A stretch of DNA of 27,542 nt from a virus. The position numbers were made by a program, and so were the translations under genes. Location: UHGV virus genome UHGV-0088497. One strand, 5' to 3'. Each line of letters begins with the position of its first letter. Within the stretch, counting starts at the first letter, position 1. The notes below the pieces were generated by a model. The model saw only the letters and a list, made by a program, of their open reading frames with translations, made no database searches and was not told the DNA's origin. Below, piece by piece: positions 2,484 to 13,129 of this stretch.

Positions 2484-3110
2484 TTAAAGTTCGTACTGAA
2501 CGCCTTTGACAACTCCGATAATCAGGCAATTACCGTTTATTGAAATGTTTGGATAGCGTGGATTCAAGGGAACTAAGAACTTTTGAGGCCCATCGATGAC
2601 GAGTTTTTTTACAGTAGCCTCGCTTGTCCCATCAAGCCTGGCTACGACTATCTTTCCATTAAATGGCTCTGCATCAGGATCTACTATGACCGTTGCCCCT
2701 TCTGGGATTGTGGGGAGCCCATTAGGGTTTGTCATCGAATCACCTTTGACCTCCAATGCAAAGGAGCTATCACCTATCCTGAGTGATGTTTCTACCCACT
2801 TATCTACTTCACTGAAAACTTCTGCTGCTTTACATTCTGTAAACTGTCCAGCCTGAACCCAAGATATCACCGGAATCCTTCGCATCTTGGTTATCAGATT
2901 CCCTTCGAATTCAGTGCCATAAAGTATGTAATCAATTGATGTGTTGAAATACTTTGCAAGTTTCGCAAGTGACTCACCGCCTGGCACATTAATGTCTTTT
3001 TCCCAATACCCAACCGCCACATCGCTAACACCACAGAACTTACCCAGTTCTTTCTGCGAGGTTTTAGTTATGCGCCTGAGAGCTTTGATGCGCTGACCGA
3101 CAGTTTCCAT
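2484..3110 (-). CDS. cI: cI-type prophage repressor (XRE HTH plus S24 LexA-like autopeptidase)
   Basis: N-terminal HTH (SQKELGKFCGVSDVAVGYWEKD), an Ala-Gly site (VQAGQ), the GDSM serine motif and a downstream KKL lysine. I start it at ATG 3110 (METVGQ); the ORF-track start at 3143 is a TTG. Confidence 0.9.
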   Translation of the reverse strand: METVGQRIKALRRITKTSQKELGKFCGVSDVAVGYWEKDINVPGGESLAKLAKYFNTSIDYILYGTEFEGNLITKMRRIPVISWVQAGQFTECKAAEVFSEVDKWVETSLRIGDSSFALEVKGDSMTNPNGLPTIPEGATVIVDPDAEPFNGKIVVARLDGTSEATVKKLVIDGPQKFLVPLNPRYPNISINGNCLIIGVVKGVQYEL

Positions 3111-3135
3111 TTGAACACCATAAAAAATTAAAAGG

Positions 3136-3198
3136 CTAAGCAATCTTAGTTTTTATTGACCAAAGTTAGATTGGTTATTAATATCTAATCAAACTTAG
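3136..3198 (+). promoter_or_regulatory. OR region with two CTAA-N6-TTAG operators, one ACCAA-N7-TTGGT palindrome and PR
   Basis: Operators CTAAGCAATCTTAG (3136..3149) and CTAATCAAACTTAG (3185..3198). Palindrome ACCAA-N7-TTGGT (3159..3175). PR is TTGACC (3156..3161), a 17-nt spacer and TAATAT (3179..3184). The region lies between divergent cI and cro. Confidence 0.65.
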
Positions 3199-3211: not shown

Positions 3212-3439
3212 ATGACAACCGATGATATTGAAAACTACTTCGGCAGTACTGAGAAAGTTGCCGAGTTTTTTGGAATCACAAGCGAGGCCGTTTACCAGTG
3301 GCGTAATAGAACTGGTCGCCTAATCCCGAAAGGACGTGCAGCAGAAGCAGCCTATCGGACTGGGGGAAAATTGGTTTTCCATCCCGACCTTTACGAAAAG
3401 CGTAGCGATGCTTCAGTAAAACTCAAACCACAGGAATAA
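3212..3439 (+). CDS. cro: Cro/YdaS-like HTH regulator (75 aa)
   Basis: Divergent from cI, with an AAGGGGG RBS. The motif KVAEFFGITSEAVYQWRNR...IPKGRAAEAAYRTGGKL is typical of the Cro/YdaS family. Confidence 0.75.
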   Translation: MTTDDIENYFGSTEKVAEFFGITSEAVYQWRNRTGRLIPKGRAAEAAYRTGGKLVFHPDLYEKRSDASVKLKPQE

Positions 3440-3449
3440 GGGGGGAGCT

Positions 3450-4001
3450 GTGGGTAACGAACCTATTTGGAAAGTCGAACGTCAGCCAGCCTGGCTGGTG
3501 GCGGCGATAAAAAAAACGATCACCGATCTTCCTGGTGGTTATGCCGAGGCGGCGGAATGGTTGGGCGTGACAGAGAACGCATTGTTCAACCGCCTTCGTG
3601 TTGACGGCGACCAAATCTTCCCGCTGGGCTGGGCAATGGTTTTACAACGTGCTGGTGGTTCAACTCATATTGCTGATGCCGTTGCGCGCCATTCTCAGGG
3701 CGTATTTGTACCGCTGGCAGATGTCGATGATCTGGATAACGCCGATATCAACCAGCGCCTGATGGAGTCCATCGAATGGATAGGCCGTCATTCGAATTTT
3801 GTACGTAAAGCCACGGCTGATGGGGTAATTGACGCAGATGAGCGTGCTCAGATTGAGGAAAACAGCTATCAGGTTATCGCGAAGTTCCAGGAGCACGTAA
3901 CGCTTCTTTATCGAGTTTTTTGTGTCGCTGAAAAGAGTGACGCCCGCGAGTGTGCAGCTCCGGGCGCCTTGGCGAACAACTCTTCGAGTATGGAGAAATA
4001 A
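3450..4001 (+). CDS. cII-like regulatory protein (Phage_CP76-type, 183 aa)
   Basis: It occupies the position after cro. An HTH-like stretch (GGYAEAAEWLGVTENALFNRLR) resembles the CP76/CII family as I remember it. GTG start. Confidence 0.55.
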   Translation: MGNEPIWKVERQPAWLVAAIKKTITDLPGGYAEAAEWLGVTENALFNRLRVDGDQIFPLGWAMVLQRAGGSTHIADAVARHSQGVFVPLADVDDLDNADINQRLMESIEWIGRHSNFVRKATADGVIDADERAQIEENSYQVIAKFQEHVTLLYRVFCVAEKSDARECAAPGALANNSSSMEK

Positions 4002-4173: not shown

Positions 4174-4353
4174 GTGCGCGAACTTAACCGAAGGTTCAAA
4201 GACCACCGTGGAGTGCCAGTCCGTGTTATCCGCTGGGAGCCAGAAACACAGCGCGTTATCTATCTGCGTGATGGCTACCCGCACGAATGCTTCAGCCCAC
4301 TTGAGCATTTCAGGCAAAAATTCAGGGAGATAACGGACGATCATGAGCACTAA
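4174..4353 (+). CDS. Hypothetical protein (59 aa), missing from the ORF track
   Basis: Hand translation gives (V)AELNRRFKDHRGVPVRVIRWEPETQRVIYLRDGYPHECFSPLEHFRQKFREITDDHEH. GTG 4174 lies about 10 nt after GGAGGG. The stop overlaps the start of the O-like gene. It looks more protein-like than the overlapping 127-aa and antisense 66-aa track ORFs. Confidence 0.4.
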   Translation: MRELNRRFKDHRGVPVRVIRWEPETQRVIYLRDGYPHECFSPLEHFRQKFREITDDHEH

Positions 4354-5209
4354 ATTAACCGGCTACGTATGGGATGGTTGCGCGGCGTCGGGCATGAAGT
4401 TGTCTAGTGTCGCGATCATGGCTCGACTCGCTGATTTCAGCAGTGATGAGGGCGTATGCTGGCCGTCAATTGAAACTATTGCTCGCCAGCTTGGCGCAGG
4501 CCCGAGCACTATCAGAACGGCAATCGCAAAGCTTGAAAAAGATGGCTGGCTCACGCGTACACAGCGCCGTAATGGTAACCGTAATGCTTCGAACGTGTAC
4601 CGCCTGAATGTGGCGAAACTTCAGGCTGCCGCATTTTCTCAACTGTCAGATTCTGACACATCAAAATCTGACGCATCAAAATTTGACACCTCAAAAACTG
4701 ACCCGTCGAAATCCGGCAAAAACGGCGGTTTTGACCCGTCAGAATCTGGCGGGGATCCGTCAGTAAAATCAAAACAAGATCCACAAGTAACTTTAAAACC
4801 CTCTTGTCCGGTTGCGGCGCAACCCGACCCTGAGGTTGTGATTACTGATCAGGCCAGACAGGTTTTGTCTTACCTGAACCAGACAACTGGTTCACGCTAC
4901 CAGGTATGCAGCACGTCGCTGGAGAACATTCGCGCCCGTCTGCGGGAACAGTTCACTGTTGATGATCTGTGCCTTGTGGTGGATTACAAAAACGCTGATT
5001 GGCGTGATAGCGAGCAGGCTCAATACCTCCGCCCGGCAACTCTGTTTATTCCAAAAAACTTCCCCGGTTACCTGCAAAGCGCGACCAAATGGTCTGCCGC
5101 TGGGCGACCTGAACGCGTTAACGGTAAATGGGCGACTAACTCAGCCAGCCGCGCAAACTTCCAAAATGTTGACTATTCACTGCCAGAAAATTCGGGGTTC
5201 CGCTCTTGA
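4343..5209 (+). CDS. Replication initiator, lambda-O-like (N-terminal wHTH plus conserved phage C-terminal domain)
   Basis: N-terminal HTH (WPSIETIARQLGAGPSTIRTAIAKLEKDGWL). Internal iteron array. The C-terminal block (QVLSYLNQTTGSRY...DDLCLVVDYK...YLRPATLF) resembles the phage conserved C-terminal replication domain. Confidence 0.8.
   Translation: MSTKLTGYVWDGCAASGMKLSSVAIMARLADFSSDEGVCWPSIETIARQLGAGPSTIRTAIAKLEKDGWLTRTQRRNGNRNASNVYRLNVAKLQAAAFSQLSDSDTSKSDASKFDTSKTDPSKSGKNGGFDPSESGGDPSVKSKQDPQVTLKPSCPVAAQPDPEVVITDQARQVLSYLNQTTGSRYQVCSTSLENIRARLREQFTVDDLCLVVDYKNADWRDSEQAQYLRPATLFIPKNFPGYLQSATKWSAAGRPERVNGKWATNSASRANFQNVDYSLPENSGFRS
4652..4760 (+). repeat. Iteron array (candidate ori) inside the O-like gene
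   Basis: Four tandem 15-bp units: TCTGACACATCAAAA, TCTGACGCATCAAAA, TTTGACACCTCAAAA, ACTGACCCGTCGAAA. After a 19-bp gap comes TTTGACCCGTCAGAA and a degenerate copy. The array encodes the SK-rich linker SDTSKSDASKFDTSKTDPSKS. Confidence 0.65.
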
Positions 5210-6525
5210 TGCCAAATAAATATTGCCAGGCGCTGGCAGAACTGCGCAGTAAACCAGCTCACGAATTGAAAGAAGTTGGAGATCAGTGGAGGACACCTGA
5301 TCTGCTTTTCTGGGGGATCAACGCGTTATTTGGCCCATTAGTTCTGGACTTGTTTGCTGACGACGACAACGCGAAATGCCCGGCATGGTACACCGCCGAA
5401 GATAACGCGCTGACCCAGGACTGGTCTGAACGTCTGGCAAAACTGGGTGGTGCAGGTTATGGCAACCCACCGTATAGCCGTTCGCAGTACCACGAGAAAC
5501 AGGCGATCACTGGTATGACGCACATCATGAAGTACGCAGCAGCCCAGCGCGAGAAGGGCGGTCGCTATGTATTCCTGATAAAAGCCGCGCCAAGTGAAAC
5601 GTGGTGGCCGGAAGATGCCGATCACATTGTATTCATTCGCGGGCGCATTGGGTTCGATCTGCCTGTGTGGTTTGTACCTGCTGACGAAAAACAGAAGCCC
5701 ACCAGCGCGTTTTTTGCCGGTGCCATAGCTGTATTCGATAAGTCATGGCGTGGTGAGCGGTTCAGCTATATCAACCGTACCGAACTGGAGGCAAAAGGGC
5801 GGGCGTTTATGACTTTGGCGCAATTTGCTGCCAGCAAGTCTCAACCTGCAACTGCCACACCATCTGTAGCTGACAAGCCAGAAGCAGAGTTGCCACTTAC
5901 CCAGAAAGATATTTTTGATATCAGCGGTGTCGAGGCGTGGGCATGCGTTAGAGCTGCGTTCGGCGATAAAGAAGAATACACATTTAGTGAATCGAAGTTT
6001 GGGCATACCTGGGCGGCGGATTCTGTCGAAGCACCGGAATTCACTCAGGTATCACCATTAACGATCGACAAAGCGAAGCTGCTTATTCGTGAGAGTATTT
6101 TGTTCGGTGTGGATGAGTGGCTGTTGTCGATTGAATTCGATGACGCTGCTGCGCGCCTGGATATGTCGGAACGTATTCGTACTGTTGCCCTTGAAGCATC
6201 TGGTGAATATGGCATGAACAGTACTGATTTCATTGCAGCTATGGGAAGCCTGGATGTTTCCAGTTGGTCCAATATTCGCCAGATCCGCATGCACATCCGT
6301 GAGAAAACTAAACCAGTATCGGATCCGCTTCCCGAGTCCCGTATCTGGCCGCTGGAGGTTGGAATTGTATTCGACCAGGTAGACGGCGCTGACATGCTGG
6401 ATGAATCACAGCAGAACAAGCTGAAAGCCAACATCAATCAACTCTGGCTGGAACGAACGGCCACCAGCGAAATCATTACTGCTGCTTCTGAACTTGTTCG
6501 CAATATGCGGGGAGAGGCCGCGTGA
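5209..6525 (+). CDS. Phage Dam-type N6-adenine DNA methyltransferase fused to an uncharacterised C-terminal domain of about 220 aa
   Basis: The N-terminal third has QWRTPDLLF...LDLFADDDNAKCPAWYT...GYGNPPYS (NPPY catalytic motif), typical of the phage Dam family. I recognise no domain in residues about 215-438. ATG 5209 overlaps the upstream TGA. Confidence 0.8.
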   Translation: MPNKYCQALAELRSKPAHELKEVGDQWRTPDLLFWGINALFGPLVLDLFADDDNAKCPAWYTAEDNALTQDWSERLAKLGGAGYGNPPYSRSQYHEKQAITGMTHIMKYAAAQREKGGRYVFLIKAAPSETWWPEDADHIVFIRGRIGFDLPVWFVPADEKQKPTSAFFAGAIAVFDKSWRGERFSYINRTELEAKGRAFMTLAQFAASKSQPATATPSVADKPEAELPLTQKDIFDISGVEAWACVRAAFGDKEEYTFSESKFGHTWAADSVEAPEFTQVSPLTIDKAKLLIRESILFGVDEWLLSIEFDDAAARLDMSERIRTVALEASGEYGMNSTDFIAAMGSLDVSSWSNIRQIRMHIREKTKPVSDPLPESRIWPLEVGIVFDQVDGADMLDESQQNKLKANINQLWLERTATSEIITAASELVRNMRGEAA

Positions 6526-6968
6526 AACTGATCCTGCCTTTTCCTCCGAGCGTGAACACTTACTGGCGCGCCCCTAACAAGGGGCCGCTGGCCGGTCGTC
6601 ACCTCATTAGCGCTGATGGCCGTAAATACCAGAGCACTGCCTGCGTGGCGATCATTGAGCAATTACGACGTCTCCCGAAGCCATCGACCGAATTGGCAGC
6701 GGTAGAAATCACTCTGTACCCGCCGGATGCGCGCCGCAGGGATATCGATAATTACAACAAAGCCCTGTTTGACGCGCTGACGCATGCGGGTGTCTGGGAA
6801 GATGACAGCCAGATTAAGCGCATGCTGGTGGAATGGGGACCCGTTGTGCCGAAAGGTCGGGTAGAGATAACGATCAGCAGATATGAACCGGCGGGTGCAG
6901 CCGCCTTATATGGAGAAAAGTATGAGCCAGTTAATCGTGAATGGTGTAGTAACAATGTCCAGCCGTGA
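6522..6968 (+). CDS. rusA: RusA Holliday-junction resolvase
   Basis: Contains PPSVNTYWR and DIDNYNKALFDALTHAGVWEDDSQI. GTG 6522 overlaps the upstream stop (GTGA). The C-terminal tail overlaps the next gene. Confidence 0.85.
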   Translation: MKLILPFPPSVNTYWRAPNKGPLAGRHLISADGRKYQSTACVAIIEQLRRLPKPSTELAAVEITLYPPDARRRDIDNYNKALFDALTHAGVWEDDSQIKRMLVEWGPVVPKGRVEITISRYEPAGAAALYGEKYEPVNREWCSNNVQP

Positions 6969-7608
6969 TATTGCGGATCTGGTTCAGAGTAAACACAGTG
7001 ACGTGAAACGCTCGGCTGAGCGTCTTGTTGCTGCGGGAATTTTAACCGCGCCATTGGCGCAGTTCGATTTTGAGCATAACGGTAATGTGTACCAGGAGTA
7101 TCGTTTTAACAAACGCGACTCTCTGGTGATTGTTGCCAGATTATCACCTGAATTTACCGCCGCGGTCGTCGATCGCTGGCAGGAACTGGAAGAAGGACAG
7201 AGTGTCAGTGTTCCCCGCTCATTACCGGAAGCGCTTCGCCTGGCTGCTGATTTAGCCGAGCAGAAAGAGCAACTGACGATCCAGCTGGCAGCCGCGGCGC
7301 CAAAAGTGGAGTTTGTTGATCGTTATTGCTCTGCAAAAGGCTCCATGTCATTCCGGCAGGTAGCCAAATTGCTTAACGCAAAAGAAACTGAGTTTCGTCT
7401 GTTCCTTATTGAACGCAATATCCTGTATCGCCTCGGCGGCACACTTACCCCCATGGCGCAGCACATTTCCGCGGGAAGATTTGAAGTTAAGACGGGAACA
7501 TCGAGCACATCCAATCACGCATTCAGCCAGACGCGTTTCACTGCCAAGGGAGTACGCTGGATTGGTGGTTTGTGGGCTGAACATATTGCAGGGGGGCAGG
7601 CGGCGTGA
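6922..7608 (+). CDS. Rha-family regulator / KilAC-domain antirepressor
   Basis: Start ATG 6922 has GGAG 7 nt upstream. The N-terminus is Rha-like (SSRDIADLVQSKHSDVKRSAERL). The C-terminus is KilAC/ANT-like (VEFVDRY...FRQVAKLL...). Confidence 0.7.
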   Translation: MSQLIVNGVVTMSSRDIADLVQSKHSDVKRSAERLVAAGILTAPLAQFDFEHNGNVYQEYRFNKRDSLVIVARLSPEFTAAVVDRWQELEEGQSVSVPRSLPEALRLAADLAEQKEQLTIQLAAAAPKVEFVDRYCSAKGSMSFRQVAKLLNAKETEFRLFLIERNILYRLGGTLTPMAQHISAGRFEVKTGTSSTSNHAFSQTRFTAKGVRWIGGLWAEHIAGGQAA

Positions 7609-8600
7609 GGGCTTTGTTAACTCCTGAAGTCGCCCATCGCATGGGGATTGTGTTGTTTCGTCCCGGCGCGGAACTGATGCACCTCTTTATGCGTGGTCGC
7701 GTTTTGCTCGAGCCTGAACCAGAAGAAATGGCGTCATTCAGTACAGGAGCTGTTCCCGCCGCCATTCAGCCGCTGGCTGATGATCCGGTAATGCGGCAGG
7801 TCTTCGAGAATGATCGGGTTATTCAGCGTGCCGGTGGGCTTCCTTCCCTTGAGCAATGGTTGAGTACCCGGTTTGAATGCCAGTGGCCACATTCATCGTG
7901 GCACGATAAGAACTTCACAATAATGCGGCACCCACCAGGAAGTATTCACCTGTGCTGGCATTGCGATCACACTTTGTCGGGGCAACATACCGAACAGCTT
8001 GCAGGTATAGCGGCAGGAAACCTGGTATCCTGGATTCTGGAAGTCATTCGGCGTGATTCTGGTTTTCCCGAGTCGCATATCCTGACGCTTCCGGAACTGT
8101 GCTGGTGGATGGTCAGAAACGACCTGGCTGATGTTATTCCGGAAAGCGTTGCGCACAAGGGGCTACGCCTTCCGGATGAGAAGATCCGCTCGGTCATGAG
8201 GGAAAGCGATATTGTACCTTCCGTTTCTGCAACCAGCCTCGTGCAGGAGAAGGCGAAGAAGATCATCACGCTCTCTGTTGATCCGGAGTCTCCGGAATCT
8301 TTCATGCTCAGGCCAAAGCGACGCCGCTGGATAAATGAGACTTACACCCGCTGGGTAAAAACACAACCCTGTGAGTGTTGCCGACGGCCAGCAGATGATC
8401 CGCACCATATCGTAGGGCACGGTATGGGTGGTACAGCAACAAAAGCCCATGACCTCTTCGTGATCCCTCTGTGCAGAGAGTGCCACGACGAGTTACACGC
8501 CGATGTACCGGCATTCGAGCAGAAGCATGGTACGCAGCTTGAGCTGCTACTGCGTTTTATGGATCGGGCGCTGGCGATCGGTGTAATTGCGAAAGCTTAA
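7605..8600 (+). CDS. DUF968/Ref-like HNH-type protein with a long unknown N-terminal region (331 aa)
   Basis: The C-terminal block CECCRRPADDPHHIVGHGMGGTATKAHDLFVIPLCRECHDELH matches the DUF968 / P1 Ref-like metal-binding motif as I remember it. GTG 7605 overlaps the upstream stop. Confidence 0.6.
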   Translation: MRALLTPEVAHRMGIVLFRPGAELMHLFMRGRVLLEPEPEEMASFSTGAVPAAIQPLADDPVMRQVFENDRVIQRAGGLPSLEQWLSTRFECQWPHSSWHDKNFTIMRHPPGSIHLCWHCDHTLSGQHTEQLAGIAAGNLVSWILEVIRRDSGFPESHILTLPELCWWMVRNDLADVIPESVAHKGLRLPDEKIRSVMRESDIVPSVSATSLVQEKAKKIITLSVDPESPESFMLRPKRRRWINETYTRWVKTQPCECCRRPADDPHHIVGHGMGGTATKAHDLFVIPLCRECHDELHADVPAFEQKHGTQLELLLRFMDRALAIGVIAKA

Positions 8601-8617
8601 GTGTATGGAGAAAAGTG

Positions 8618-8983
8618 ATGCGTGATATTCAAATGTTACTTGAAAGATGGGGCGGGTGGGCTGCCAGTGATAGTTCTGGCGTGGACTATTCTCCTATAGC
8701 TGCAGGATTTAAGGGGCTGTTGCCGCAAACAGGTAGATCCCGACCGTCATGTACTGACGATGATGCGCTGATCATCGAAGGTTGCCTGGCGCGATTGAAA
8801 AGCCGGAAACCATATGAGCATTCACTGCTTGTAGCTCACTATCTGTATGGAATATCCAAGAGGAAGATCGCAAAAGTGCGTAAAAAAGATGAGAAATTGA
8901 TACGGATCGAGATACAGATGGCTGAGGGGTTTATTGATGGCTGCCTTTCAATGTTGGATGTAAGGCTTGATATGGATGAATAA
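8618..8983 (+). CDS. Late antiterminator Q (QuuD / phage-21 Q family)
   Basis: MRDIQMLLERWGGWAA...IAAGFKGLL...DDDALIIEGCLARLK closely recalls E. coli DLP12 QuuD. ATG 8618 has GGAG 7 nt upstream. Confidence 0.85.
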   Translation: MRDIQMLLERWGGWAASDSSGVDYSPIAAGFKGLLPQTGRSRPSCTDDDALIIEGCLARLKSRKPYEHSLLVAHYLYGISKRKIAKVRKKDEKLIRIEIQMAEGFIDGCLSMLDVRLDMDE

Positions 8984-8992
8984 CTAATTGTT

Positions 8993-9023
8993 AACATTAT
9001 GCCCCGTGTAGGGGCCTAATGTT
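8993..9023. terminator. 13-bp-stem hairpin between convergent Q and the 4-TM gene (no U-tract)
   Basis: AACATTATGCCCC gtgta GGGGCCTAATGTT with one mismatch. It overlaps the stop codon of the minus-strand gene. Confidence 0.45.
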
Positions 9024-9471
9024 ACAAGTGAGGGAAAATTCTACGCAGCACTAACCAACACCTACCAAATGTGCAAAGTGAAAGGAGCAGCGAAGACAAT
9101 CCTAACAGGAGAAATAAAAAATCAATTGGTTGAGCAAAGACCTTAACATCCTCTGGTAAGAACATAGCGATCAGTGGAAACAAGCAGGCCAAAATCAGCG
9201 TCAACCCTGTTGATAGCAAGCGATTTATCAATGTTGGTAATATATTATTCCTTTTGAGGGCGTTAATGGCCCCATCTTTGTCACTATCTGCGCTACTGAA
9301 TATAGATATAGCGGCGAGAACAAACCCAAAAAGAATTCCTGAAATTGTCGAAAGCACACCTGCTGTAGTTAACACATCAGCATGTTTCATAGGCTTAAAC
9401 AGTTTTGTCGCTGCATAAGTAATCAGAACTAAGAGGACCACTTTCCAAAAAAGAGTTAGAAATTCTCTCAT
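9022..9471 (-). CDS. 4-TM membrane protein (149 aa), RexB-like candidate effector
   Basis: GGGAGG RBS 5 nt upstream. Four hydrophobic helices at about residues 5-25, 34-60, 81-105 and 116-142. Size and topology match lambda RexB (144 aa). LSTISGILFGFVLAAISIF resembles RexB LSSYAGTMIAILIAALTFL as I remember it (unverified). Confidence 0.6.
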   Translation of the reverse strand: MREFLTLFWKVVLLVLITYAATKLFKPMKHADVLTTAGVLSTISGILFGFVLAAISIFSSADSDKDGAINALKRNNILPTLINRLLSTGLTLILACLFPLIAMFLPEDVKVFAQPIDFLFLLLGLSSLLLSLCTFGRCWLVLRRIFPHL

Positions 9472-9489
9472 TTTGTCCTCCCTTTTGCG

Positions 9490-10437
9490 TTACTGGTTTT
9501 TTTTTGCAAGCTCATACTGTGCAAGGTAATTTGCATTATCAATTTTAGCAGATATCATCGCCGTCCTGATATCAGAATCAGAAGGATAGCCGCTTTTTAC
9601 TACTATAGTTTTCGAGCCTATGAGCACTTGATCAAGTAGGCTTTTTGGCGCTGTATCTGATGGTTCTGTTACATCAATTTTCTTGATGTTTAGCCCGCCA
9701 GAGCCTTTGGGGAATAGTTCAAGCAGTTCTTTAATAGCATCAGTAACTGATGATTTAAGATAGTTGAAGCCTGCTCTTTTGGGACGAATGCGACCGCGCA
9801 TGTTAAGTCTCAGGTGTGAACCGCCCATACCAACCACCATATCAATGATGTCATTAGTAAGGTCATTCTTAATCTGATAATTAGCTTTATTGAAATTTCT
9901 TGGCGCTGCGACAGTGAGGTCAAAACTGCGAAGGATGTTCCCATCTTCAAGAAGTTCCTTCATGCTCTCGTGCTTCCAGATAGCCTCGAATGTAACATTT
10001 TTCATTTGTGTCTTGTTGTACAGAATGAAAGATAAATCATTCACTTTGGGGCCTAAATGGTTGAGAGTCATTGCTAGTAAATCTGTTTCAAAGTAGTAAA
10101 TAAAATATGTCCGTTCTACTACTGAATCTTTATCGCTAAGCGGTATCGTTCGCTCGCTTCCTGTGGTGCCATCCTCGATAAAAGGTAAGAGACAATCACG
10201 CCTCCACGAGACATACCCAAAATAACTCTGCTGCTTATCATCCTTTTCAAGAATGACAAGTTTTAAACCGCGGTTTTGGGTTTCTGCTGTCACCACTAAA
10301 GGGAATGTAACCGGAGTCGTGTTTGTCATTTGCTCGAATGCAAGTTTCGCTGTAGACAGACCGTCTTTTTTACTTCCATTTCCAGTGAAAAAGCCAACTC
10401 TTACGCGACGAGTTTTCTTCTTATCTTCTGTAGTCAT
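9490..10437 (-). CDS. Soluble 315-aa protein, RexA-like candidate sensor
   Basis: ATG 10437; the track start at 10443 is a TTG. It lies 18 bp upstream of the 4-TM gene on the same strand and is AT-rich. The block FETDLLAMTLNHLGPKVNDLSFIL resembles lambda RexA VEGDTIGFARTVFGPTTSDLTDFL as I remember it (unverified). Confidence 0.55.
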   Translation of the reverse strand: MTTEDKKKTRRVRVGFFTGNGSKKDGLSTAKLAFEQMTNTTPVTFPLVVTAETQNRGLKLVILEKDDKQQSYFGYVSWRRDCLLPFIEDGTTGSERTIPLSDKDSVVERTYFIYYFETDLLAMTLNHLGPKVNDLSFILYNKTQMKNVTFEAIWKHESMKELLEDGNILRSFDLTVAAPRNFNKANYQIKNDLTNDIIDMVVGMGGSHLRLNMRGRIRPKRAGFNYLKSSVTDAIKELLELFPKGSGGLNIKKIDVTEPSDTAPKSLLDQVLIGSKTIVVKSGYPSDSDIRTAMISAKIDNANYLAQYELAKKNQ

Positions 10438-10675
10438 TATCAATCCGATGAGAATTTCTGATAAACGGACGAAAAATACTATAAATAATTGAGAAGATCA
10501 TTAGCGCGGTCCGCAAAAAGTGATGTAACGTGTTAAGAGTGGTTACTTGGTCACATTGCTTAATCATCAAATTCAGCTTCTGAGTTTTGTTTTAACGATG
10601 CTTGATTGTGCGACTTATCTCTCTGAAACTTATCTTCTTTTCCTTGACTATGAATTTTCTATCTAAGGAGGTTCT

Positions 10676-10924
10676 ATGTTGGGAGTGTGTTCTTGTGGTG
10701 GTAGGCTTGATGAGTCGCAGTATTCCACCGATAGCCTAGGTAATACGTTCAAATCTTGTCCAAGATGTACGCAGATTTCCGGGCATCACGTTTTCTATCT
10801 TATTGAGGAGTTTGGCGAGAGGGATATGGGGGATGGCAGAGTTATAGTGCAACCATATTGCCCATCGTGCAGAAACTACCAAGAAAGATCATTAGTTCCT
10901 GCGTTTGAGTGCAGTGGTTCATGA
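10676..10924 (+). CDS. Zinc-ribbon protein (82 aa), function unknown
   Basis: Strong RBS (AAGGAGG, 5 nt, ATG). Motifs CSCGG, CPRC and CPSC. Followed by a canonical terminator. Divergent from the RexAB-like operon. Confidence 0.65.
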   Translation: MLGVCSCGGRLDESQYSTDSLGNTFKSCPRCTQISGHHVFYLIEEFGERDMGDGRVIVQPYCPSCRNYQERSLVPAFECSGS

Positions 10925-10943
10925 TCACAACATTCAATATAAG

Positions 10944-10965
10944 ACCACCTTCGGGTGGTTTTTTT
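10944..10965 (+). terminator. Rho-independent terminator
   Basis: ACCACC ttcg GGTGGT followed by TTTTTT. Confidence 0.8.
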
Positions 10966-11088
10966 ATGACAAATCAGACATGCGCGGCGCGTAAAGGCGC
11001 TGGTGGTCGCAGAATGGAATTCTTCTCTTGCTGGTGAAGCCAACCAGAGTTATCTGTATGTCACTCTAATTGTTTAAGGGTAAAAGGC

Positions 11089-11280
11089 ATGCTAAATCAG
11101 CAAGATATGACAGAAACCGCGAAGGCTGTTTTCAATGAGTTAAGCGATAAACCAGCATCGGTTGGGGAGATTGCACAGAATACCCACCTCAGCCGCGAAC
11201 GTTGCCAACTCATACTTACGCAATTGGTGATGGCGGGATTATCTGACTACCAGTTCGGATGTTATAAGCGTTTCCAGTGA
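11089..11280 (+). CDS. Small winged-helix protein (63 aa), same family as the 567..821 product
   Basis: VFNELSDKPASVGEIAQNTHLSRERCQLILTQLVMAGL aligns by eye with VFEYLQAHPNTTSGEIAKGMNKKTPAVAGALSQLYGTG of the 567..821 product. Confidence 0.55.
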   Translation: MLNQQDMTETAKAVFNELSDKPASVGEIAQNTHLSRERCQLILTQLVMAGLSDYQFGCYKRFQ

Positions 11281-11410
11281 TATGTTTTTTTGCACTATGT
11301 GAACTGCATCAACAGTTTAGTTTTTTCTTATTTCTGGCTTAAAAATAGTTTTTGACATAACTCTTTAGCTATTAAGATTTTTTACCTTATCAACTTGATA
11401 GAGGTGAAAA

Positions 11411-11743
11411 ATGAGTGTTGAAAATTATGAAATTGCTTTAAATGATGTTGACCCAACTAACCTGGGTGCGGTTAAAGACTTATTGGAGACACACTCCCAT
11501 CTTTTCAATGACTATTTTCTAGCCGGTTATGGCGGTGATGCCCGATACTCCGTTATTGATGGCTCATTTGAAGTTATCGGTATTGGAGATGGTTTTTTTG
11601 AGTATGAGGTTGGGATTGATTTTTTTGCTGGTTGCTCAGATATGAACGATACCCACGAAGACTCTGGGATACTTGAATATGAAGTTAGAGATGGAAGTAT
11701 TCACATTGAAGTGGATGAAGCTGTCTGGAGAGTAGACAATTAA
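11411..11743 (+). CDS. Highly acidic 110-aa protein, function unknown (possible DNA mimic or anti-defence factor)
   Basis: GAGGTG RBS. By my count it has 14 Asp and 11 Glu against 1 Lys and 3 Arg. No recognisable domain. Confidence 0.6.
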   Translation: MSVENYEIALNDVDPTNLGAVKDLLETHSHLFNDYFLAGYGGDARYSVIDGSFEVIGIGDGFFEYEVGIDFFAGCSDMNDTHEDSGILEYEVRDGSIHIEVDEAVWRVDN

Positions 11744-11933
11744 TTCCCGCTTACTGATCCTAATCGCGCCGCTATAAATGGTTTGGCGGCTTTCTGCTGT
11801 GGAAATGGGCGGCTGGTGGGTGTTAGCGCACCCAGTCAGCCATCAGCTCATGCTTTCAGGTCACAAGCTAACCAAGGCCCACTGCTTTAGCGCAAAAGCA
11901 ACGTGAGCCTATCAGAGTTACGCTTACTGATCT

Positions 11934-12986
11934 ATGAAAAATACTGTAAAAATAAACAGGGTTGAGTTAATCAACGCTGATAGCCTGCATTACGTCGCCA
12001 CCCTCCCGGATAACTCTATTGATCTGATTGTTACGGATCCTCCGTACTTCAAAGTGAAGCCTAACGGCTGGGACAACCAATGGAAGGGGGACGAGGACTA
12101 CTTACGCTGGCTTGATAGCTGCCTGGCTGAGTATGCTCGCGTTCTTAAACCTGCTGGCAGCATCTACCTGTTTTGCGGTCACCGACTGGCCTCAGACATA
12201 GAGATTATGATGCGTACCCGGTTCAAAGTTTTGAATCACATCATTTGGGCAAAACCATCGGGCCGCTGGAATGGATGTAACAAAGAAAGCCTGCGTGCGT
12301 ACTTTCCATCTACGGAACGGATTTTGTTTGCTGAGCACTATCTTGGGCCGTACACAGGTAAAGAGGATGTTTACGAAAGGAAAAGCACAGAGCTAAAGCA
12401 GCACATTATGACGCCGCTGATTGATTACTTCCGTAATGCCCGTGAATCACTGGGAGTCAGCTCGAAAGAAATAGCTGAGGCAACCGGAAAGAAAAACATG
12501 GCGTCACACTGGTTTGGTGCAAGCCAATGGCAACTACCAAATGAAGTGGACTATAGAAAATTGCAGGAACTGTTCACGCGGATCGCTATCGATAAGCACA
12601 TTCAGCAGAAGCTTGAACATCCTCACCACCAGCTGGTAGCCACCTATCAGTCATTAAACCGCAAGTATTCAGAATTGCTGGAGGAATACAAAACCCTCCG
12701 GCGCTGCTTCTCTGTTTCCGCTTTTGTTCCGTATACCGACGTATGGACGCATAAGCCTGTTCAGTTTTATCCAGGCAAACATCCATGCGAAAAACCTGCC
12801 GACATGCTGAAGCAGATCATTAGCGCCAGCAGCAGACCGGGGGATATCGTTGCCGATTTCTTTATGGGCTCTGGTTCAACTGTGAAAGCTGCAATAGAAC
12901 TTGGTCGTCGGGCGATCGGCGTAGAACTGGAAACCGACAGGTTTATTCAGACCACCGAAGAGGTGGAAAAACTCAACAAAACATAA
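11934..12986 (+). CDS. Orphan beta-class N6-adenine/N4-cytosine DNA methyltransferase
   Basis: Motif IV DPPY (LIVTDPPYF) is near the N-terminus and motif I FxGxG (ADFFMGSGST) near the C-terminus. No restriction endonuclease partner is evident. Confidence 0.85.
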   Translation: MKNTVKINRVELINADSLHYVATLPDNSIDLIVTDPPYFKVKPNGWDNQWKGDEDYLRWLDSCLAEYARVLKPAGSIYLFCGHRLASDIEIMMRTRFKVLNHIIWAKPSGRWNGCNKESLRAYFPSTERILFAEHYLGPYTGKEDVYERKSTELKQHIMTPLIDYFRNARESLGVSSKEIAEATGKKNMASHWFGASQWQLPNEVDYRKLQELFTRIAIDKHIQQKLEHPHHQLVATYQSLNRKYSELLEEYKTLRRCFSVSAFVPYTDVWTHKPVQFYPGKHPCEKPADMLKQIISASSRPGDIVADFFMGSGSTVKAAIELGRRAIGVELETDRFIQTTEEVEKLNKT

Positions 12987-13129
12987 CGATCATCACGCTC
13001 CCTGTTGCTGTGGTGATCACCATTTTCAGGCACCGGGAATCATCCTTACTTTTAGTTGAACAAAAGAGCCCGGTTGCCTGATCCCCTCCAATCACACACA
13101 GCGCCATCCGAAAAATCGGAGGTGAGGCT

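Follow-up and report, generated by a model that had tools for sequence, protein, structure and literature searches.

We analysed a 27,542-nucleotide stretch of the UHGV virus genome UHGV-0088497 (the window), in which the gene directly behind the lambda-O-type replication initiator (5209–6525, + strand) encodes a phage N6-adenine methyltransferase of 438 amino acids (aa). Its C-terminal half is made up of two separable modules and a linker, not of one domain; we refer to the modules as insert and tail. A first-pass annotation of the same DNA had placed the gene in the slot of the missing helicase loader and had suggested, as speculation, that the C-terminal half recruits host replication factors or targets the enzyme to the origin. 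Of this interpretation, the position of the gene and the unassigned nature of the C-terminus held, whereas a role as a loader substitute was not supported. The explanation that we favour as a whole, with a probability of roughly 0.6, is an orphan methyltransferase bearing two adaptor or oligomerisation modules, encoded in a variable modification cassette of a phage that would replicate with an initiator only.

Domain architecture of the methyltransferase

The protein could be divided into four parts, listed here with the evidence used for each.

5209–5823 (+), residues 1–205: catalytic N6-adenine methyltransferase domain (PF05869, TIGR01712, PADLOC, ratio of nonsynonymous to synonymous substitution rates (dN/dS))
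5824–5883 (+), residues 206–225: flexible linker rich in Pro, Ala and Thr (alignment, model, dN/dS)
5884–6318 (+), residues 226–370: insert module (AlphaFold2, alignment, charge, dN/dS)
6334–6522 (+), residues 376–438: tail module, a three-helix bundle (AlphaFold2, alignment, dN/dS)

The Pfam profile Dam PF05869 matched residues 18–198 (E = 2e-43; 148.4 bits at a cut-off of 28.1) and the NCBIfam profile TIGR01712, "phage N-6-adenine-methyltransferase", residues 15–196 (206.9 bits at a cut-off of 97.05), and the PADLOC model MTase_II PDLC03332 was matched with E = 5e-160. The NPPY motif (motif IV; residues 86–89, nucleotides (nt) 5464–5475) was kept in all aligned homologues whose sequence includes the catalytic region. 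By both profile cut-offs and the motif, the protein is a member of the phage N6-adenine methyltransferase family PF05869/TIGR01712, in agreement with the Dam-type assignment of the first-pass annotation. The Dam enzymes of phages T1, VT2-Sa and HP1 presumably belong to the same family. While the window protein shares with this family a catalytic domain far above both curated cut-offs and the NPPY motif, the family model spans ~165–170 residues and does not include the 230-residue C-terminal extension found here. Two other leads were set aside: the number of GATC sites in the window (132 observed vs. 110 expected) was uninformative as a clue to specificity, and the non-specific adenine methyltransferases of the Hia5 type proved unsuitable for comparison, as they belong to a different (DPPY/FxGxG) family.

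With residues 205–438 as query, 599 proteins of varying length were retrieved, nearly all of them Dam fusions. The alignment revealed that the common form of these homologues, 292–297 aa in length and including Sb44 of Salmonella phage ST64B, consists of Dam domain, linker and a tail of ~60 aa. A minority, the window protein among them, contained an extra insert of ~145 aa between linker and tail. Hence, Sb44 and the ~292–297-aa methyltransferases of Citrobacter, Salmonella and E. coli prophages (PADLOC/REBASE-derived PDLC03332) share the Dam domain, the position of the linker and the tail with the window protein, but are devoid of the 145-aa insert. ST64B is 79.6% identical to the window at the nucleotide level across the first 620 nt (Dam domain) and exhibits the same neighbourhood (replication protein ... 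Dam ... RusA ... DUF968 ... Q), but its replication gene and Dam are separated by a PerC-like gene, sb43. In many Citrobacter relatives, a 644-aa C5 methyltransferase is encoded between Dam and rusA.

AlphaFold2 modelling of the C-terminal 217 residues, based on a 29-sequence alignment, yielded a mean predicted local distance difference test score (pLDDT) of 92, with values of ~95 for the insert and ~96 for the tail. In this model, the insert formed nine helices and a small hairpin (protein residues ~230–367) and the tail a three-helix bundle (residues ~382–433), joined by a disordered hinge (residues 371–374). The linker was variable in length and unalignable among homologues, and scored below 50 in the full-length model. 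Comparison with seven orthologues by the Nei–Gojobori method gave dN/dS values of 0.02–0.09 for the Dam domain, 0.08–0.12 for the insert and 0.09–0.17 for the tail, whereas the linker reached 0.35–0.68 compared to about 0.1 in the flanking domains. Twelve residues of the insert (P229, A249, F251, S262, H266, W268, D271, P276, V281, R322, N355, R357) and eight of the tail (W380, P381, E383, L397, I409, N410, I422, A426) were invariant. Model confidence and selection together indicate that insert and tail are folded domains under purifying selection, on a flexible tether, and not recombination debris. The single C-terminal domain postulated by the first-pass annotation was thus replaced, on the basis of alignment and model, by linker, insert and tail.

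The two modules were also found in different company. We observed the combinations Dam-tail, Dam-insert, Dam-insert-tail, ParB-insert and stand-alone tail, demonstrating that insert and tail are independently mobile. Mosaic junctions, together with chimeric or truncated variants such as P0010 (Dam and half an insert joined to the C-terminus of a C5 methyltransferase) and P0006 (catalytic core deleted), could be taken to mean that the C-terminal half is a non-functional scar of mosaic phage exchange. We regard this as extremely improbable, since dN/dS is about 0.1 in both modules at synonymous saturation, the invariant residues persist in homologues of 30–40% identity, the model confidence is high (92) and the modules are retained in hundreds of genomes.

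The modules differed in charge. The insert was acidic (net charge −10, isoelectric point 4.6), and so were its homologues, with net charges of −6 to −14 in nine out of ten and −1 in the remaining one (P0127). The tail was mildly acidic to neutral, and near-neutral in its stand-alone forms. The acidity of the insert argues against DNA binding and for protein binding.

Relatives of the insert and the tail

Residues ~206–438 did not match any Pfam family (E ≤ 10) and gave nothing meaningful in NCBIfam, where a spurious match to ATP-synthase epsilon (E = 0.05) was the only hit. In PHROGs, residues 205–438 retrieved only "DNA methyltransferase" families that already include the tail. A phmmer search of the full-length protein against PDB sequences (E ≤ 1) remained without a match, and insert and tail profiles gave sub-threshold matches only against the same sequences (E ≤ 10). 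Foldseek comparison of the model returned nothing at E ≤ 0.001 from the PDB and nothing significant from BFVD. An exhaustive HMMER scan of 1.84 billion representatives recovered 43 clusters only, all of them enterobacterial prophage proteins, and the insert profile search revealed no architectures beyond those of the scan. Our literature search brought up no paper that treats the C-terminal extension, ST64B sb44 or PF09524 initiators without loaders. The domain-wise profile and AlphaFold analysis suggested in the first-pass annotation therefore produced two confidently modelled modules but no match to a known family, and its statement that some 220 C-terminal residues belong to no assignable family was borne out for Pfam, NCBIfam and PDB entries. 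We conclude that insert and tail are two small domain families that are described in no database and restricted to Enterobacterales prophages.

Several candidate identities were dismissed on the way to this assignment. We discarded a HisE/MazG-like identity for the second half of the insert, marginal in the PDB search (E = 0.02), as the acidic motif for metal binding is not conserved. An origin of the insert from the neighbouring C5 methyltransferase found no support in BLASTP similarity, and similarity to ST64B sb43/PerC-like proteins was not evident when the sb43 translation was compared by eye. E. coli K-12 yfdM was discarded as a tail homologue, as no DNA match was present in K-12-type genomes. 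Finally, three apparent "stand-alone" insert-tail proteins (P0012, P0007 and P0022) turned out to be gene-calling artefacts of a broken Dam fusion; in locus L004 the break consists of consecutive undetermined bases, presumably Ns, which appear as X in the translation.

The acidity and narrow distribution of the insert raised the alternative that insert, tail or both act as an anti-restriction or anti-defence decoy, either DNA-mimic-like or as an inhibitor, fused to a protective methyltransferase. In keeping with this idea, the net charge of −10 and pI of 4.6 are accompanied by acidity that is conserved across fusions, the surrounding cassette is otherwise filled with DNA-modification genes, and the insert is limited to Enterobacterales prophages (the 43 clusters of the scan). 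The charge density of the insert is modest, however, in comparison with known DNA mimics: Ocr and ArdA carry about −25 to −30 charges per monomer. In addition, no fold match to ArdA, Ocr or other inhibitors was obtained, PADLOC matched only the methyltransferase domain and a tail that belongs to the methyltransferase model, and stand-alone tails are near-neutral. A decoy function therefore appears improbable.

The tail accompanies a C5 cytosine methyltransferase

Stand-alone tail proteins comprised 86–134 aa, and their genes ended on the start codon of a C5 cytosine methyltransferase gene (~640–660 aa). The phages carrying them possess a replication module of DUF1376 and lambda-P. In Citrobacter-type relatives, a Dam-tail gene was followed by the C5 methyltransferase gene in the same overlapping manner. 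In a first set of loci, tail-coding sequence was located directly upstream of the type-a C5 gene in 34 of 34 cases. An independent sample seeded with the C5 enzyme (80 IMG/VR loci, 78 usable) gave the same picture, with the tail directly upstream of the C5 gene in 78/78 loci, fused to Dam in roughly 55 of them and stand-alone in roughly 23. This co-occurrence indicates that the tail is a methyltransferase-associated module. The C5 enzymes preceded by a tail (L010–L014, L004, L005, L008, L124–L203) are about twice the usual C5 size. The window itself has the tail but lacks the C5 gene.

At least eight of the 78 loci contained a lambda-P-like gene upstream, in the order O – P – ... – tail – C5 methyltransferase; the insert was not seen in these eight phages. 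Since P follows the initiator directly and the tail-C5 pair lies further downstream, the methyltransferase cassette is situated downstream of the loader slot and not in it. The strict pairing of tail and C5 gene may indicate that phage methyltransferases have an accessory subunit or adaptor that has gone unrecognised.

The interval behind the initiator

The annotated early region of the window reads as follows (for genes listed with Pfam/PHROGs, the assignment rests on these two collections).

2484–3143 (−): cI (Pfam/PHROGs)
3212–3439: cro (Pfam/PHROGs)
3450–4001: cII/YmfL-like (Pfam/PHROGs)
4174–4353: DUF4222 (Pfam/PHROGs)
4343–5209 (+): O-like initiator, 288 aa (PF13730, E = 8e-12; PF09524, E = 1.3e-25; PHROG replication-initiation families)
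5209–6525 (+): Dam-family methyltransferase with linker, insert and tail, 438 aa
6522–6968 (+): rusA, Holliday-junction resolvase (PF05866, E = 1e-15)
6883–7608: Ant-type antirepressor (Pfam/PHROGs)
7605–8600: DUF968/HNH (Pfam/PHROGs)
8615–8983: Q (Pfam/PHROGs)

The methyltransferase open reading frame (ORF) starts with ATG at 5209 and terminates with the stop codon at 6523–6525; an alternative TTG at 5206 corresponds to the start used by the Prokaryotic Genome Annotation Pipeline (PGAP) in relatives. At the TTGATG junction, the stop codon TGA of the initiator gene (5207–5209) shares one base with the ATG (5209–5211), which confirms the overlap reported by the first-pass annotation. At the other end, the stop codon overlaps the GTG start of rusA (GTGA, 6522–6525). 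The overlaps at both ends suggest that initiator, methyltransferase and rusA are translationally coupled in an early-right operon. As a side observation, the rusA ORF (148 aa) and the longest Ant ORF overlap by 86 nt (6883–6968); relatives annotate rusA as 128–132 aa with a later Ant start, and the true Ant start is thus probably downstream of 6883.

Between 5209 and 8600 the window encodes the methyltransferase, RusA, the Ant-type antirepressor and the DUF968/HNH protein only, and, as noted before, no gene of P, DnaC or DnaB type is recognisable there. Nor was a member of the P, DnaC/IstB or DnaB families found elsewhere in the window by Pfam (early region and the island at 9–13 kb) or PHROGs (early region), ORFs beyond 13 kb being listed only. 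Pfam, NCBIfam and PHROGs likewise gave no match to an AAA+ or RecA-type ATPase domain among the scanned ORFs.

To place this gene order in context, we surveyed 80 phage contigs, out of ~600 IMG/VR loci, that were retrieved with the initiator alone (61–100% identity) and hence unbiased by the methyltransferase. Sixty-seven of them were complete to DUF968/Q and gave the following contents for the interval behind the initiator.

At least one DNA methyltransferase: 63/67 loci
PF05869 Dam: 45/67 loci
Tail: 32/67 loci
Insert: 27/67 loci
Insert and tail together: 16/67 loci
Neither insert nor tail: 24/67 loci
No methyltransferase: 4/67 loci
Lambda-P-like gene: 0/67 loci

Besides Dam, we encountered three types of C5 enzyme, MT-A70 and a fusion of an EcoDam-like domain with a C5 enzyme. 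In an 853-aa ORF of locus L097 (6451–9012), in the same position after the initiator, a C5 cytosine methyltransferase is joined to a classical EcoDam-like (DPPY) adenine methyltransferase. Loaders were sought in the survey by Pfam on representative ORFs and by tblastn probes for lambda-P-like genes only; Pfam assigned PerC-like, HTH (helix-turn-helix) and MT-A70 domains to previously unassigned ORFs, and recognised neither a loader nor a helicase among them. In all 67 complete loci the interval was closed, just before Q, by a DUF968/HNH-like gene (~330 aa), by construction, because DUF968/HNH or Q served as the end marker; it is present in most other related loci, too. The contents of the interval thus identify the stretch behind the initiator as a hypervariable cassette of DNA-modification genes, and show that the lineage as a whole carries no recognisable loader. 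The placement of the gene in a helicase-loader slot was not upheld, as the cassette lies downstream of P wherever P exists in more distant relatives.

These data bear directly on the idea that the C-terminal half replaces a loader of the lambda-P or DnaC type by bridging the O-like initiator and host DnaB. As lambda O normally pairs with P, the question of what takes the place of P is a legitimate one. However, insert and tail are both missing from 24 of the 67 phages that use this initiator, and a recognisable loader is missing from all of them; the replication module of this initiator thus works without insert and tail, which are not an obligatory component of it, and four loci even dispense with any methyltransferase. 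Moreover, the supposed loader domain is two modules, and the tail accompanies the C5 gene in 78/78 loci, including the eight phages that have a P-like gene as well. Profile and fold comparisons were likewise negative. Insert and tail profiles scored probabilities below 1% against the initiator alignment and the initiator's own domains, and hhalign gave 0.4% and 0.2%, respectively, against ten lambda-P-like proteins. Neither profile nor fold similarity to DnaD/Phg_2220_C-like primosomal domains was detected, and the all-helical C-terminal model contains no P-loop fold. Replacement of a loader by the C-terminal half is consequently very improbable.

The insert in ParB-like proteins

The insert also forms the C-terminus of ParB-like proteins of ~435–446 aa, composed of ParB N-domain, HTH_ParB and insert. 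Retrieval with the insert profile yielded 26 genome loci (13 Dam fusions and 13 ParB fusions) from Mixta, Enterobacter, Buttiauxella, Phytobacter, Kosakonia, Atlantibacter, Leclercia, Mangrovibacter, Erwinia and Pantoea. The fusion gene was flanked by DUF4222 and the O-like initiator on its upstream side and by rusA/DUF968/Q downstream in 23 of these loci, and the insert keeps this position when its N-terminal partner switches from Dam to ParB. One Dam-insert fusion (L037) is encoded away from any initiator, beside an MT-A70-like methyltransferase gene near an integrase. Compared to the ParB/Spo0J family, the insert takes the C-terminal position of prophage ParB-like proteins in the same slot, but it shows no sequence or fold similarity to known ParB C-terminal dimerisation domains, is acidic and all-helical, and in the window is attached to a methyltransferase.

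The synteny would also fit a model in which the enzyme is anchored at the initiator, the origin complex or the replisome by the insert or, with lower probability, by the tail, so that new phage DNA is methylated at once, and in which the ParB-like proteins are recruited likewise. Insert and initiator are neighbours in 23/26 loci from no fewer than eight enterobacterial genera, although the N-terminal partner of the insert changes, the insert is absent from the eight P-containing loci, and the methyltransferase gene is translationally coupled to the initiator gene. The acidic, helical insert with its invariant polar residues S262, H266, D271, R322, N355 and R357 further suggests a conserved binding surface, for which an IPEGFRG-like peptide common to all initiators (see below) could be the docking motif. 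On the other hand, the synteny may reflect common descent of one prophage backbone, L037 has the fusion away from an initiator, many phages with the same initiator use a Dam without insert, and the insert does not covary with the initiator domain type. In view of these findings we consider docking unlikely. A bolder version, in which the insert is a new docking domain that tethers Dam or ParB-like proteins to a loader-less initiation complex or to host DnaB/DnaC, and thereby links methylation with phage replication or helps to recruit the helicase in phages without P, while the tail is, independently, an accessory subunit assembling Dam and C5 enzymes into a "methylation complex", seems similarly unlikely.

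Initiator and probable origin

The initiator (4343–5209) consists of an N-terminal winged HTH_36 domain, a low-complexity linker and a C-terminal Phg_2220_C domain, and ends in a conserved ...VDYSLPENSGFRS peptide. Lambda O itself was found to be composed of HTH_36 and PF09524 by HHpred and is normally paired with P (Brezellec et al., PMC5509034); the O-like character given to the initiator by the first-pass annotation is therefore correct. Four to five iteron-like repeats of ~15 nt (TCTGACnCATCAAAA) were located at 4645–4750, in the linker-coding part of the initiator gene, followed by an A+T-rich stretch with GATC sites at 4754 and 4778. By analogy with lambda, whose ori lies inside O, we assigned 4645–4800 as the probable origin.

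Compared to the lambda O-P module, the window shares the architecture of O and iteron-like repeats within the coding sequence, but differs in that no recognisable P (PF06992) or DnaC/IstB gene is present and the gene after O encodes a methyltransferase, the extension of which has no profile similarity to P-like proteins. Related phages with P carry it between the initiator and the tail-C5 methyltransferase cassette. All aligned initiators, including those with unrelated N- or C-terminal domains, terminated in a conserved ...(V)DY..IPEGFRG peptide (window 5170–5206; also L016, L017, L010, L002, L004, L022 and L032). This peptide is a candidate motif for docking to a shared partner, possibly one of the host, and may bear on the supply of DnaB.

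Proposed function

Its membership of the PF05869/TIGR01712 family suggests that the protein acts as an orphan N6-adenine DNA methyltransferase of the phage. Its translational coupling to initiator and rusA implies that it is presumably made from the early-right operon during phage replication. Phage and host DNA would then be methylated, and self-protection against restriction, the usual role of such enzymes, would be the expected benefit. Insert and tail are most likely not replication factors but serve DNA-modification proteins as protein–protein adaptor or oligomerisation modules. The tail would be the dedicated partner module of the ~640-aa C5 methyltransferase that is encoded directly downstream in related phages, and would have been kept where the C5 gene was lost. 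The insert, which takes the place of the dimerisation domain of ParB, probably serves in oligomerisation or in the binding of a partner. Replication of the phage, in turn, may depend on the initiator only, with a lambda-O-type protein whose own gene contains the iterons and which presumably recruits host DnaB/DnaC directly. Weigel and Seitz (2006) reportedly described phage replication modules as "initiator-solo", a term that did not turn up in our literature search.

Several points weigh against this proposal. The adaptor or oligomerisation role, although the most likely one, is deduced from the type of fold, the charge and the genes nearby. The insert shows strong synteny with the initiator family (23/26) and was not seen in the eight P-containing phages, so that it may have a link to replication. 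A novel loader family would escape the loader searches, so that the absence noted is one of recognisable families. The surveyed phages are related lambdoid prophages with a shared backbone, and the counts are accordingly not phylogenetically independent; some of these prophages may be defective. The copy in E. coli Nissle 1917 could not be induced (Bury et al., PMC5987069).

The findings overturn nothing in current understanding, and the existing annotation of the gene as a phage methyltransferase is already correct. The constant presence of the tail in front of a large C5 methyltransferase (78/78) nevertheless suggests an accessory subunit or adaptor not recognised so far. Throughout a lineage of lambdoid prophages, one of them in the probiotic strain Nissle 1917, the lambda-O-type initiator comes without a recognisable loader, which raises the question of how such initiators are supplied with DnaB; the IPEGFRG-like peptide offers a concrete lead. 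When these phages are annotated, the place behind the initiator is better read as a DNA-modification cassette than as a replication-gene slot.

Distribution and other features of the window

The exact window protein is present in public collections. Of 5426 complete E. coli genomes, 25 contained copies of 95–97% identity; one of these lies in the lambdoid prophage of Nissle 1917, where the surrounding gene order equals that of the window. The cluster at 90% identity has 337 members, which come from E. coli, Citrobacter and Salmonella and all bear the name "phage N-6-adenine-methyltransferase".

A low-GC (41%) island extends from 9000 to 13000 between Q and the downstream late-region ORFs and is probably a moron or defence island. 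Its two minus-strand ORFs, 9022–9471 (149 aa, membrane-like by eye) and 9490–10443 (317 aa), had no Pfam or PADLOC match. Several small ORFs, of which one encodes a DprA-like winged helix, are also present in the island, as is the gene of a second DNA methyltransferase (11934–12986, N6_N4_Mtase). The Nissle prophage harbours the same N6_N4_Mtase enzyme next to a different neighbour, a Clp-fold protease of the SDH family. In the early-left region of the window, a weakly YfbR-like ORF (HD-domain 5′-deoxynucleotidase) was noted at 982–1548 (−), and a similar ORF is located near methyltransferase genes in L037 (2836–3366).

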